Below are positions 22,491-32,000 of a stretch of DNA of 32,000 nucleotides, piece by piece. Source of the stretch: Candidatus Baldrarchaeum yapensis (GTDB lineage Archaea; Asgardarchaeota; Baldrarchaeia; Baldrarchaeales; Baldrarchaeaceae); NCBI GenBank assembly GCA_016840465.1, contig JAEOSH010000015.1, positions 1 to 32,000 on the forward strand, read 5' to 3'. Below the pieces are notes generated by a model. It was not told the origin of the DNA, ran no database searches, and saw nothing but the letters and a program-made list of their open reading frames with translations. Both the position numbers and the translations under genes were made by a program. Position 1 is the first letter of the stretch. Every line of letters starts with the position of its first letter.

Positions 22491-22505
22491 GGCAGAAACG
22501 TATAG
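22491..22505 (+). repeat. 15-bp exact copy of the left end of the 24191-24413 element
   Basis: GGCAGAAACGTATAG occurs at 22491-22505 and at 24191-24205; the flanks differ on both sides. Confidence 0.7.
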
Positions 22506-23067
22506 TGTTGCATTCGTTGCTTTTATGCACTTTTCCATGAGCCAAGTACGATGCGAGATTATCTACTCAATTTCCAAAATTGACTCACATCCAGCCGATA
22601 TTTCTAAAACATGGATTATTGAAAATAGATGGTGTCTTTACCTTGAGGTACATGGCCACGAATATTCCCTATGCTACCAGTAAACCAGAAATCTTCATAC
22701 GCAACCCTTTCAGGAATAATAGAGAGGATTTGCGAGAGAGTTCTCGAAAACTTTGGATGAATTTCCCAAGACGACCCATATTGCAAGTTCTTAAGAAGAC
22801 TATTTAAGTGACATCCTATTAGTTCTCTTTTTTTAATCGGTTCGAAAAAACATTTAATGTTCGATTTTTCTTTAAGAATTGACAGGAAAATGTGCGTAAT
22901 AAGAATCATATAGTCATCGGAACGAGCCGCTAATTCGATAACAGTCCTTACGACATTTATAAAAAATCTTGCTTGGCTCCTCAGATAACATTTATTTTTT
23001 GCAAGAGTGTGCATATTATTGGGGGCGTGATAAGGAATACTATACATTGTTCGTGGAGGACTATAGC

Positions 23068-24144: not shown

Positions 24145-24585
24145 ATCACTTGACCTTCCTTAAATTTTAGCATTTCACGCATGTCATCTGGGCAGAAACG
24201 TATAGAACTTTTGCGGCTCAGAACCTTTATAAAGGAAGGCCACGTTACGCCAAGTGAGCTCCGCCCGGGATGTGGGAAGGGCGGGGTGAAGGAGTCAGAT
24301 GGATGTGCGGAGTCATCGTTCCCCGCGAAAAGCCCATCGATGAGGCTCGAGGCGGGAAGGCTCTTTGTCATGCGTGCATCAAAAGTTATGAAAGTGGCAG
24401 AGAGTCAGAACGGTTGCAATCTCCCTATCAAACTCCTTTGCAGTCCTAACGACCTTTTCTACGAGTTCAGCGTTGCTCCTTACCAGAACTCCCTTCTTGA
24501 GGAAAACGTTATCCTTAAGTCTGACCTTCACGTGTCTTCCCATGACGATCGAAAGCGTCGCCATCGGGAACTTATACGCACCAAT
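24145..24585 (-). pseudogene. kce: 3' relic of a BKACE/Kce (3-keto-5-aminohexanoate cleavage enzyme, DUF849) gene, interrupted by an insertion
   Basis: IGAYKFPMATLSIVMGRHVKVRLKDNVFLKKGVLVRSNAELVEKVVRTAKEFDREIA | PDDMREMLK matches the family C-terminus (GGHVRVGLEDN...SNAELVE...REIATPDEAR). The two halves flank 24191-24413. Confidence 0.78.
24191..24413 (+). mobile_element. Non-autonomous ~220-bp IS607/TnpB-derived element (MITE-like) with omegaRNA-like 3' part
   Basis: It interrupts the kce relic, has GG at both junctions and repeated AGAAC-type motifs at both ends, and contains a palindromic TATA CTTTATAAAG and a GC hairpin. Its 3' 120 nt are repeated at 31882-32000. Confidence 0.7.
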
Positions 24586-24830
24586 GTTGCTATAGTAAAC
24601 TACTCCTATGAAGGACAACCGATGAAACCACCGTATGTACTGGGAATGGTGAGGCTTGACGGGGCGGATAATGACTTTAGGCACTTCATAGGTGAGGTCG
24701 ATCTGAGCGACCTAGAGAAGGCCGCAAAGTAACTTGGAGAGTAAGCTTGGCGCGAAAGTTGAGGTTGTTTAGAACGAAGAAAGGAAAGGGATTTCACTGA
24801 TATTAGGTACATCATAAGGATTAATCGAGT
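24586..24830 (+). pseudogene. 3' fragment of a second DUF35 OB-fold gene
   Basis: AIVNYSYEGQPMKPPYVLGMVRLDGADNDFRHFIGEVDLSDLEK, then degraded KLGAKVEVV*NEERKG/TDIRY. It is a paralog of the 21996-22469 relic and lacks the 5' half. Confidence 0.75.
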
Positions 24831-28701: not shown

Positions 28702-30252
28702 CTACTTGTACGGGGCAATCGAGCGGTTTGATGGACATAATGGACGGACTTCTACGTCCCCCCGGATCTTCTTGAACTGCTTTATGAACTCCTTGGAGTG
28801 TTGCGGTGTTATGAACAGATATATCTTCTGGAAAGATCTTATGATTCTGTGCACATCCTTATTTCGTGAGAATACCTCCATATCGTGGATCTTCCCGTCG
28901 CTTATCACGACAAGAATCTCCTTCTTCACTTCCTTATCCACAAGCCTAAATGCGGGGGTAAACATCGTTCCGCCATGGGTATATATGCCCTGTATTCTCT
29001 CCAGCGCGTAATAAAGGTTCTGCGTCGGTTTCACTATGTACCGGGAGTACTCTCCGAACCCTATTATGCTTATCTCACTGGGCTTTTCGTTCTTTATGAG
29101 GGAGGCAAGCATCCTGACAAGGTGGTATTCGTAGCCCGCCATACTTCCTGAAAGATCCAGCAGGACGGTTATCTTCCTCTTTCTCTTCTTTCTGCGGACG
29201 GTGTTGTATCCGGGAATCACCGGGTAGCGGGTGAAGGTCTTGGGGAGATCCAACTCAGATGGCGGGTCGCCACATCTCCAGATGGTGTACTCGTAATCGG
29301 GCACGTCCCTCGACTCGTCGAGTTCCACGGTTGCGAGGATCTTCTCTATCTTGTATCTCGGTTGGAGAGGTTCTTCCTTGTCGATCACCTTCAGTGTTCC
29401 CATTCCCACGCCTCCGCCCCTCTGGAGCAACGCCTTCAGTTTCTCCTTCTCATTACCGAGCATTCCCCGTTTCTTCAACTCCTCTAGGATCTTTCTGACG
29501 ATGTACGGTGCGGGGGTGAGACGGGATCTCAGGTTCTGCTCGAACTCCTTCCTCAACTTGTTGAAGAAGTCCTCGCCCAGTTCCTGCAGTGCCTGTTTCA
29601 GGTCGCTGAAGTTTCGGGAAAACATGTTGTAGAATCGCCAGTGCGTGTTGTACCAGAAGAGCCTGTAGAGTTCGGGGAGGTTTCCGAACATCATGAAGAG
29701 TTCGTCGAGTATGTAGGCGAGAAGTGCGGCCTTTATTTTCACGTTAACGTCCGCATTCAGCACTTCCTTTATTGCATTGTAGTAGGGGACAAACTTGTCG
29801 GGTATTCGGAACTTCTCGCCGTACAGGGAGTTATAGGTGATCTCATCGACGAGTTTCATGTAGTAGTTTCGCGAGCGCACTATGCACTCCTCGAAGCACT
29901 TCACGTAGTGTTCAAAGATTCTGGGGGACTTTTCGCCCAGTATTTTCCTGCTCATGCTCTCGGCGAGCATCCCGTAGACTATATACCTCACCATGTAGTT
30001 CTTCTTCGAGAGTATTGGAAAGGCGGGCGTGAGATTCTTCTGGGCAATGAGATGCAGTATTCTGTTCCAGAACTCGTAAAACAGTGCGAACTTCGGAAGA
30101 CGTTTTACAACAGCCCGCGTCATGTGTATTACGAGTGGGTTATCGCTCTTGTCTTCACTTTTCTCCGTAATAATTAGCCTGAATGGCTTTTTGTAGAGTT
30201 TCCTTGCGAGCATGGTCATGAAGTCCAGGTAGCTTTCATTACTTAGTTCCAA
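28702..30252 (-). CDS. vWA-domain protein (MoxR partner) with long helical N-terminal region
   Basis: C-terminal MIDAS DLSGS, HGGT and ISDG are intact. It overlaps the MoxR stop by 14 nt. Confidence 0.85.
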   Translation of the reverse strand: MELSNESYLDFMTMLARKLYKKPFRLIITEKSEDKSDNPLVIHMTRAVVKRLPKFALFYEFWNRILHLIAQKNLTPAFPILSKKNYMVRYIVYGMLAESMSRKILGEKSPRIFEHYVKCFEECIVRSRNYYMKLVDEITYNSLYGEKFRIPDKFVPYYNAIKEVLNADVNVKIKAALLAYILDELFMMFGNLPELYRLFWYNTHWRFYNMFSRNFSDLKQALQELGEDFFNKLRKEFEQNLRSRLTPAPYIVRKILEELKKRGMLGNEKEKLKALLQRGGGVGMGTLKVIDKEEPLQPRYKIEKILATVELDESRDVPDYEYTIWRCGDPPSELDLPKTFTRYPVIPGYNTVRRKKRKRKITVLLDLSGSMAGYEYHLVRMLASLIKNEKPSEISIIGFGEYSRYIVKPTQNLYYALERIQGIYTHGGTMFTPAFRLVDKEVKKEILVVISDGKIHDMEVFSRNKDVHRIIRSFQKIYLFITPQHSKEFIKQFKKIRGDVEVRPLCPSNRSIAPYK

Positions 30253-31450
30253 TGGCCAGCCCCTCTAAAAACTCCTTTGAGAAGATCTTCTCCAACTCGG
30301 CGAGGATGTCATTATATATGTGTCTCACACTTAAATCTCTGTCTGCAATTTCGGCGAGTGCCTCTACGAGGGGTACGACCTCGGCTCCCTCGACGCCCTC
30401 CTCTATTTTCGCCATTATCTTCTCGACTATCGCAATGGCCTCGCGCCAGTCGTCCATGTGCTTCACAATATAGTCCCTGACGAGTTTGTAGTCCCTGACG
30501 TGCTGAGTCAGCAGAACCTCCGCCGCCTTTCTTACATCCTCCTCGGAAACCTCCTTGCGCGAATACATCCAAGCCAACGCCTTTGAGAGTCTGGCTATGT
30601 TTATCGCGAGCCTTAGGCCGACAGGCTCATCAACACGGGAACATAGACCCTCCTCATATTTACAGACCTTTCTGCGCCCGCCGTAGAAGTCGCTAGATAT
30701 GGTGCTACATATTCTCTCGTCATAGCAACATTGTAATGAGCGGCTCACGAGCGTGATGAGCAACTTGCAATGTTCGGGGATTGTGACCTTTGTTACGTCC
30801 TCCTGTGCCTCTTTTAATTCCTCATAACTTATGATTTCCTCCGTTATGAGTTCGGACACATCCACTATGTCCTTACCATCAAATCTCTCCTTTAAAACTT
30901 CGAGTTCATCAAATGCCCGTGGAACATCGAGAGTGAGTTTAATAAACCTATCAGCGAGGGCCTTATCGAGAGGGCCGCGATAGGGGTTGCCATCCGCTAT
31001 CACTATTATATCCTTACAGACTTTCTTCTCGCCGTACGCTATTATTTCCCTCTCCTGGAGCAACCTGAGAAGTTCGTCCTGTACCGCTTGGCTTGCTCGG
31101 TTCAATTCGTTAAAGAATATGAGTTCGTTTCCCTTTATTTCCCAAATTACCTCTTTACGCCCCTGCTTTATCAATTCGGGTATGTTGAGGCGGTACAGGT
31201 GGTTTTCTAGGCTGACCATCGAGGGATTGCAGAATATTATCTTCTTCTCGACACCAAGCGCCTTTTCGAGACACCTGACGATCTGGGTTTTTCCTATTCC
31301 CGGAATCCCCTCTAGGTATATGTTTGCCTTTATCAGGAGGCAGGCGACAAAAGCGTCCTCTATGTGGTATTGTCCCTTCACCATGTTGAAGAGAATGTCC
31401 CGAAGCTTCAGGATTTTGTCCTGATGTACGAATTTTGGACCGTCATACAT
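30239..31450 (-). CDS. MoxR-family AAA+ ATPase
   Basis: Walker A GIPGIGKT, Walker B-like FFNELNR, LLQER, GNP and ADRF. AGGTGG RBS precedes the ATG at 31450. Confidence 0.88.
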   Translation of the reverse strand: MYDGPKFVHQDKILKLRDILFNMVKGQYHIEDAFVACLLIKANIYLEGIPGIGKTQIVRCLEKALGVEKKIIFCNPSMVSLENHLYRLNIPELIKQGRKEVIWEIKGNELIFFNELNRASQAVQDELLRLLQEREIIAYGEKKVCKDIIVIADGNPYRGPLDKALADRFIKLTLDVPRAFDELEVLKERFDGKDIVDVSELITEEIISYEELKEAQEDVTKVTIPEHCKLLITLVSRSLQCCYDERICSTISSDFYGGRRKVCKYEEGLCSRVDEPVGLRLAINIARLSKALAWMYSRKEVSEEDVRKAAEVLLTQHVRDYKLVRDYIVKHMDDWREAIAIVEKIMAKIEEGVEGAEVVPLVEALAEIADRDLSVRHIYNDILAELEKIFSKEFLEGLAIGTK

Positions 31451-31881
31451 GAGATGAAACCCCACCTGATCGTAAAAATTAGGTGATATTGTAGTATATA
31501 AAAATAAGCATCGCACCAATTACTGCTCACGGAAAATTCTGGGATGAGCAGTGTATACACGTATTGGCGAATTTGCATTTTAGGAGATGTCTTCCTTCAT
31601 TTTCCAGCGGTGGTAGAATGTCCGTATTTGTATGTTGTGCTCGGAAGTACCAATAACAGCCTCATCTGAGGAAATGAAAACCTTTTACTCCGACATGCGA
31701 GTTTTACATTCTTTTGTTCCGTAAAATGCGATGATAGATTTTCTAGTGGTTTCTTTGTATTAGTGCGTTCCCGGTGAGTTTATCCGGCGCATTTTGCAGG
31801 TTTATCAATACTTTGTAAGAGGTGGAGATTACTTTCTCTGAGGAGGCCTTGTTGAGAAATATGCTCGTTTCCCCTTTTGGA

Positions 31882-32000
31882 CCGTTCTGACTCTCCGCCA
31901 CTTTCATAACTTTTGATACACGCGTGGCGGGGAGCCTTCCCGCCTCGGGCCTCATCGATGAGCCTTCGCGGGGAACGGTGACCCCGCACATCCATCTGAC
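31882..32000 (-). mobile_element. Right end of an IS607/TnpB-family element (tnpB 3' tail/omegaRNA-like), running off the window
   Basis: Aligns to 24294-24413 with 12 substitutions and 1 indel (hand alignment) and ends in CAGAAC-GG. It translates as MCGVTVPREGSSMRPEAG, which I recall as resembling the C-terminal tail of archaeal TnpB proteins. Confidence 0.65.

Follow-up and report, generated by a model that had tools for sequence, protein, structure and literature searches.

A Probable Stand-Alone Omega-RNA Cassette Derived from an IS607 Element in the Asgard Archaeon Candidatus Baldrarchaeum yapensis

Introduction

CboIStron, an IS607 element of Clostridium botulinum, is the natural point of reference for the locus described here. 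The TnpA and TnpB proteins of this element both select the sequence 5'-TGGG-3' and depend on a strict GG core, and mismatched core dinucleotides abolish excision. The omega-RNA scaffold of CboIStron ends in ...UCGG, and self is distinguished from non-self at position -3 (10.1101/2023.11.20.567912). TnpB proteins of IS607 elements have also been described together with reRNAs derived from RAGATH-18 (PMC11061315). Elements that carry no protein-coding gene are known from the IS200/IS605 group, in which the protein-less PATEs encode omega RNAs that are acted on in trans (Meers et al., PMC10055086). Mobilized stand-alone omega RNAs of the OMEGA systems likewise work in trans, according to the part of PMC10691335 that recounts Altae-Tran 2021. 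In the literature searched, there is no description of an IS607-derived, promoter-bearing, protein-less version in Asgard archaea.

Here, we describe an element of this kind at the end of a 32,000-nucleotide stretch of DNA, referred to below as the window (G000:C76:1-32000). The window belongs to contig C76, which is 43.8 kb long, in an assembly of 2.27 Mb that comprises 100 contigs and is 96% complete. The element, called copy B, occupies 31882-~32161 of C76 on the minus strand, and a sister, copy A, lies at ~24.3 kb. Copy B is a real conserved RNA element of a kind that has already been described. Very probably, the part seen in the window is the right-end portion of an IS607 element that was reduced by deletion to ~280 bp without protein genes, that is, a PATE- or MITE-like stand-alone omega-RNA cassette.

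Position and Anatomy of the Mini-Element

The window ends inside copy B and holds 119 of its ~280 nt, the 3' 43% of the element (Table 1). A repeat search of the window pairs 24294-24414 with the minus strand of 31881-32000 (88-94% identity; blastn E = 2e-39) in two arms, 24329-24414 with 31881-31966 at 88% and 24294-24329 with 31965-32000 at 94%. This likeness of copies A and B is far beyond chance, because blastn finds ~17 copies of the element in the genome and a covariance model finds 20. The model matches C76:31882-32073 with 184 bits in copy B, compared with 146 bits in copy A and 211-229 bits in young copies. A preliminary description of the window had presented the distal locus as a second, less decayed copy of a scaffold, and the repeat match and these scores show that it is real and less decayed.

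Alignment of the copies with long flanks defines a unit of ~271 nt, which is 280 nt in copy B. The unit begins with a left end (GG followed by GCAGAAACGTATAGTGTTGCATT...), continues with a TATA box, AACC(C/T)TTATAAAGGA, and a GC-rich scaffold of ~188-190 nt that starts ~23-25 nt past the TATA box in the aligned copies, and closes with the right end. Identity ends exactly after CAGAACGG in every copy and gives way to unrelated sequence, just as the preliminary description had it when it noted where copies A and B part and proposed that they carry different guides. Contigs of other copies aligned to the copy B locus break at the exact same base as the right end.

It had also been anticipated that the contig past base 32000 would reveal the left end of an element and a tnpB-like gene with a tnpA. 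The left end is present in a degenerate form (~C76:32152-32161); in place of tnpB and tnpA, the contig continues beyond copy B with the genes for the alpha and beta subunits of a pyruvate/2-oxoacid:ferredoxin oxidoreductase (POR-type) operon. Apart from a ~40-codon remnant within the scaffold, no tnpB or tnpA occurs on C76, including the 11.8 kb past base 32000, and copy B, without any ORF for TnpB or for a serine-recombinase TnpA with its MerR-like HTH and resolvase domain, is not an autonomous IS607 element. On its other side, a MoxR-like AAA+ ATPase gene lies at 30239-31519 on the same strand as the putative copy B RNA, which would run toward this gene. In the intergenic stretch between the mini-element and the ATPase gene, a low-depth contig (4.7x) of run X6, from a related population, skips 101 nt (L039:1291-1393, equivalent to C76:31672-31774).

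Table 1. Features of copy B and of related pieces on contig C76; positions up to 32,000 are those of the window.
Feature	Position	Strand	Basis or remark
Guide-equivalent flank, 20 nt directly 3' of the scaffold, RNA sense TCCAAAAGGGGAAACGAGCA	31862-31881	-	homology among copies stops at 31882
Scaffold, 3' 119 nt, including right end ...GAGAGTCAGAACGG	31882-32000	-	covariance model and copy alignment
Terminal stem, 13 bp, with variable loop; 5' arm GGCUCCCCGCCAC (31924-31936), 3' arm GUGGCGGAGAGUC (31889-31901)	31889-31936	-	
Middle helix, family consensus CCCGUC/GACGGG	31939-31962	-	
Hairpin GCGGGG (31982-31987)/CCCCGC (31968-31973), family form GCGG.G/C.CCGC	31968-31987	-	
Stem 1 of copy B	C76:32007-32066	-	beyond window
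TATA box of copy B	C76:32089-32098	-	beyond window
Decayed left end of copy B	~C76:32126-32161	-	beyond window
Copy A, more decayed sister of the same subfamily	24191-24413	+	copy alignment; covariance model
Solo left-end fragment of the IS/mini-element family, GCAGAAACGTATAGTGTTGCATTCGTTGC...	22492-22540	+	motif scan and sequence

The Mini-Element Family and Its IS607 Parent

About 15-20 copies of the mini-element are present in the genome, with sharp ends, unrelated flanks, and no common ORF. Ends and scaffold are kept without genes at many unrelated sites in a genome that also contains a cognate autonomous element, the pattern of a protein-less derivative, with the caveat that the left end of copy B itself is degenerate. 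The term MITE is only loosely apt, since the ends are not inverted repeats (left GCAGAAACG..., right ...CAGAACGG, in direct orientation) and the family copies have no target-site duplication beyond the common GG.

Copies A and B belong to an older subfamily that resembles the mini-element of a sister-family genome (L023), the layout of which is the same as that of copy B. Copy A has suffered deletions of ~25-30 nt in the left end and of 29 nt within stem 1. A 101-aa ORF at 24379-24684 (-) abuts this copy and matches only positions 205-265 of the 274 positions of the BKACE profile, so that it looks like a truncated gene remnant. The solo fragment listed in Table 1 consists of ~50 nt that resemble the left end and then runs into unrelated sequence instead of a scaffold. 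Counting copies A and B, the family is thereby represented by three pieces in a span of 10 kb. Elsewhere in the genome, the mini-elements at C39:1-296 and C69:3170-3464 are 98.5% identical and agree fully over a left flank of at least 45 nt, yet their right flanks are unrelated, a pattern that could reflect recombination between copies, duplication, or chimeric assembly where a contig ends. Weaker covariance-model matches of 35-56 bits (C23:23327-23516, C1:27147-27244, C82:5817-5958, and C30:2561-2641) come from more diverged or fragmentary relatives of the scaffold, and C82 carries a second variant element of ~250 nt with the terminus GGAGAACCAGAACGG.

The sole autonomous parent is an IS607-type element at C96:26175-28026. 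This element encodes a TnpA of 204 aa with HTH_17 and Resolvase domains (6e-26) and, in an ORF that overlaps tnpA, a TnpB of 436 aa (PF07282, 1.4e-21). It possesses both the left end and the right end of the mini-elements, its scaffold overlaps the 3' end of tnpB, and it shares the 3' ~115 nt with them. The TnpB protein keeps GVD, ALE, and ADRD motifs, which can be read, by eye and from an alignment with solved relatives, as the RuvC triad, together with the CxxC...CxC zinc-finger cysteines, and the gene is apparently intact. The best solved relatives of this protein are TnpB, Cas12f, and Fanzor-like proteins. Together, tnpB and tnpA of C96 are the only cognate pair in the 96%-complete, 100-contig assembly. 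Two further pairs of a serine-recombinase tnpA and a tnpB are located at C96:32153-33800 (-) and C55:21079-22687 (+). Compared with the C96 parent, their TnpA proteins are 49-53% and their TnpB proteins ~27% identical, and these pairs represent other IS607-type lineages without a match to the mini-element scaffold.

Comparison with the parent indicates that the mini-element is a deletion derivative of a C96-type IS. The first ~50 nt of the IS left end are kept, stem 1 of the mini-element corresponds to the zinc-finger-coding segment of tnpB, in which two blocks match at 19/21 and 20/22 bases, and ~85 nt of coding sequence between this segment and the final ~115 nt are missing from the mini-element. 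Split covariance-model matches in tnpB-bearing loci agree with this deletion.

Association of the Scaffold with TnpB in Other Archaea

The scaffold is not confined to a single genome. Among 35 tnpB loci of Bathyarchaeia, Thermoproteota, Archaeoglobi, Thermococcus, Korarchaeia-like, and Asgard MAGs with TnpBs 55-81% identical to that of C96, ~26 have it at the tnpB 3' end, in the orientation of the gene. Within the Asgard archaea, it was found in 10 of the 151 genomes searched, where it accompanies full tnpA-tnpB elements in some cases and truncated tnpB genes in others, or else stands alone. Position at the 3' end of tnpB and strand define an omega RNA, and the scaffold, which in C96 and in other archaea lies at or overlaps this end on the same strand and terminates at the right end of the element, is therefore of the TnpB omega RNA (reRNA) type. 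The location of the scaffold at tnpB 3' ends beside a serine-recombinase tnpA, on C96 and in many other archaea, bears out the earlier proposal of a conserved functional RNA or end structure. The closest relatives of the C96 TnpB include proteins from Baldrarchaeota and other Asgard MAGs, and the top relative (81%) is encoded in a Bathyarchaeia MAG, a sign that this IS607 lineage may have moved between phyla. TnpBs in the same range of identity also occur in Undinarchaeota, and the carriers are mostly hydrothermal or hot-spring MAGs (L061-L107). Rfam returned zero matches to the window at gathering score, and six intact copies searched at E <= 1 yielded only a chance miRNA match; as no family in Rfam matches, RAGATH-18 included, the scaffold constitutes a different RNA family.

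Conserved Fold of the Scaffold RNA

The fold was evaluated on a structure-blind MAFFT alignment (A3) that covers the 3' ~122 nt of 27 copies and draws on 10 genomes; relatives were included because the within-genome copies are too similar for a test of pairing (mean column identity 88%). Taking all helices together, 84% of cells are paired compared with 40-57% in slid controls, and 84 cells carry double changes compared with 11-17 in these controls. None of 500 shuffles reaches the observed value, a figure that overstates significance because of the relatedness of the sequences. When all column pairs are scanned without bias, the same helices come out on top. The secondary structure is thus supported by compensatory changes, as in an omega RNA, and alternative helices, which served as a negative control, failed. 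The covariation that the preliminary description proposed to test for in a larger set of copies is present in the 27-copy alignment.

The terminal stem has 85-94% of its cells paired, and 10 of its 13 pairs have changed on both sides; in the model-fitted alignment, the stem is 90% paired, with 59 double-change cells against at most 7 in slid controls. In the middle helix, 89% of cells are paired and 5 of the 6 pairs carry changes in both partners, and the model-fitted alignment gives 94% and 24 double-change cells against at most 3 in controls. In copy B, this helix is formed by CUCAUC (31957-31962) with GGCGGG (31939-31944) and includes one A.C mismatch and two G-U pairs. The GCGG hairpin is 74% paired. 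Its second pair has switched from C-G to G-C in 8 sequences, and its fifth is A.C in 24 of the 27 sequences, copy B being among the three with G-C. The near-invariant loop of this hairpin, CCGUUC (31973-31978), is complementary to GAACGG (31882-31887), which directly precedes the guide, so that a pseudoknot is possible, on which covariation is silent because both segments are near-invariant. Many pairs of the family are G-U and are workable only on the scaffold strand. Stem 1 sits beyond the window, and part of the covariation that it shows in the model-fitted alignment is artificial, because the model placed a different stem, from the coding region of tnpB-bearing relatives, in its columns. 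The folding energy of copy B (z = -0.8 relative to shuffles) is not significant and is uninformative for a GC-rich RNA. Two helices proposed by RNAalifold, GCGG with the proximal CCGU and CCCG with CGGG, were replaced by alternatives that covary better.

The motifs on which the preliminary description had built its fold all occur on the minus strand as quoted, namely GCGGGG and CCCCGC, the palindrome CTCATCGATGAG (31951-31962), GGCGGG, CCGCCAC (within 31924-31936), GTGGCGG (within 31889-31901), and the flank TCCAAAAGGGGAAACGAGCA. Some of the pairings drawn between them have to be redrawn. A hairpin formed by the palindrome is 46% paired and one between GGCGGG and CCCGCC is 69% paired; neither does better than controls, and both are limited to the subfamily of copies A and B. 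In copy B, the middle helix takes its 5' arm from the palindrome and its 3' arm from GGCGGG; the CCCGCC side is part of the terminal stem. Pairing of CCGCCAC with GTGGCGG, which had been viewed as an alternative or competing interaction, is real and covarying, but the main terminal stem, of 13 bp, has this pairing at its core and does not compete with it. The single C-G to U-A double change and the three G-U wobbles reported for this stem in copy A are exact and fall at column pairs 148/181, 147/182, 150/179, and 153/176.

Flanks, Guides, and Mobility

The left flanks of the family end in GGG, with G at position -1 in 17/17, at -2 in 14/17, and at -3 in 13/17 copies, and the scaffold ends in ...ACGG. 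These two features together point to a flank logic like that of CboIStron. A GG core at both junctions and an NGGG left flank, as in IS607 ends, are thus typical of the family. Copy B conforms at its right end and has TT at its left, where the junction reads TGTT followed by CAGAAAC, compared with GGG followed by GCAGAAAC in the family, and contains a 5-6-nt insertion. With the left GG core gone and the core rule of CboIStron applied, copy B is probably immobile. The last ~10 nt of the element (CAGAACGG) resemble the left-end motif CAGAAACG.

The TATA box, stems, and right end of copy B are intact. Relative to a young copy, identity amounts to 15/15 nt in the TATA core and 85-86% in the scaffold, compared with 61% in the left end and 47-60% in the spacers, and by this conservation the promoter looks functional. 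The only 20/20 match of the copy B guide in the genome is its own site, the next best being 14 nt with one mismatch. Likewise, each 20-nt guide of the family copies matches its own flank only, with partial matches at chance level elsewhere, which fits selfish retention or homing and not the targeting of other loci. The insertion of copy B is in place in contigs of two runs from separate studies, X5 and X1, the latter perhaps the source of the assembly, and a short X7 contig crosses its left junction. Among the public-run contigs, of which those of X6 and X7 leave parts uncovered, none joins across copy B and none represents an empty-site allele.

Proposed Mechanism and Alternative Explanations

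Under the favored reading, a stand-alone omega-RNA cassette derived from an IS607 element, the TATA box would drive a minus-strand transcript that serves as a guide RNA for TnpB, its last ~16-20 nt being copied from the adjoining host DNA. For mobile copies, the serine recombinase TnpA encoded on C96 would excise the mini-element at the GG cores. The C96 TnpB, loaded in trans with mini-element RNA, would then cut the emptied site, which now presents NGGG followed by the guide-matching flank, and repair from the sister chromosome would restore the mini-element. Copy B, with its left GG core changed to TT and the 5-6-nt insertion, would be stuck in place with its promoter, scaffold, and right end kept.

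The unequal preservation of copy B could also be viewed as the mark of an exapted guide-RNA gene, in which the host keeps immobile copies as TnpB guides or regulators that act in trans in a TldR-like manner, for example, at the promoter of the AAA+ ATPase gene. The promoter core (15/15) and scaffold (85%) are kept, in contrast to the decayed recombination end (61%, GG lost), the RNA would run toward the MoxR-like gene on the same strand, and mini-elements outnumber tnpB ~15-20 to 1. However, gene conversion or a dead copy of moderately young age would be expected to leave the same pattern of conservation, and no conserved orthologous insertion has been seen in other species. Moreover, the guide matches only its own flank, which is preceded by ACGG and not by a GGG TAM, and the cognate TnpB keeps its catalytic motifs, unlike TldR. 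A TldR-type regulator as such, a nuclease-dead TnpB homologue guided to a conserved host promoter instead of its own flank, is at odds with the GVD, ALE, and ADRD motifs and with guides that match their own flanks only. Host retention is very unlikely. The broader form of this idea, that the mini-elements are a dispersed repertoire of promoter-driven guide-RNA genes whose immobile copies are kept for their RNA in an early host use such as regulation or defense, is just as improbable; if it were true, it would show in a TATA box and scaffold that are conserved preferentially relative to the recombination end.

A reading purely at the DNA level, in which the stems are recognition features for TnpA at the right end and no functional RNA is involved, draws on the resemblance of the last ~10 nt to the left-end motif and on the finding that IS607 excision needs sub-terminal end sequences (10.1101/2023.11.20.567912). 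Conservation and covariation nevertheless extend ~190 nt inward, far past the end motifs common to both termini, and the many conserved G-U pairs would be A.C mismatches in DNA and on the opposite strand. The TATA box is conserved at a fixed upstream distance, and the homologous region is an experimentally shown omega RNA in related IS607 elements (10.1101/2023.11.20.567912), which together make this reading very unlikely. Finally, the C96 element has homology to the scaffold in the 3' end of its tnpB and in its right end, which might have meant that copy B is the right end of a complete tnpB-encoding IS607 with genes just past the window, a reading with next to no probability left now that the contig sequence has refuted it, the further 11.8 kb being without tnpB or tnpA and the element having its own left end 280 bp away, followed by the POR genes.

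Comparison with Known Systems

The current view of how TnpB systems work is unchanged by this finding. What is added here is a structure-blind test of the helices, a link of the scaffold to tnpB across phyla, and a diagnosis of the dead left end of copy B, along with a covariation-supported fold for an RNA family absent from Rfam. In addition, the natural deletion marks a stretch that the mini-elements dispense with in the longer RNA region embedded in tnpB, knowledge that could help in the design of compact guide RNAs for thermophilic archaeal TnpBs.

Like CboIStron, the C96 parent combines a serine-recombinase TnpA with TnpB and has a scaffold that overlaps the 3' end of tnpB and the right end. 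The GG core, the NGGG left target or TAM, the CGG at the end of the scaffold, and a guide taken from the DNA past the right end are shared as well. Unlike CboIStron, copy B has no genes and carries its scaffold behind an archaeal TATA box of its own; it has no group I intron, resides in an archaeal host, and shows no T preference at -4. With the RAGATH-18 system, the elements share the combination of an IS607 TnpB and a conserved structured RNA at the right end, but that family does not match these copies even at E <= 1.

The closest parallel in lifestyle is offered by the PATEs and the stand-alone omega RNAs of the OMEGA systems, which are likewise gene-less, keep ends and scaffold, occur in many copies compared with few effector-encoding elements, and need TnpA and TnpB in trans. 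These were described for IS605, with its Y1 transposase and single-stranded DNA hairpin ends, and for IscB systems, whereas the mini-elements described here come from IS607, with a serine recombinase, a double-stranded circle intermediate, and a GG core, and have an explicit internal promoter. They provide a clear example, from IS607 and from an archaeon, of a transposon offshoot that is reduced to a guide RNA and carries a TATA promoter of its own.
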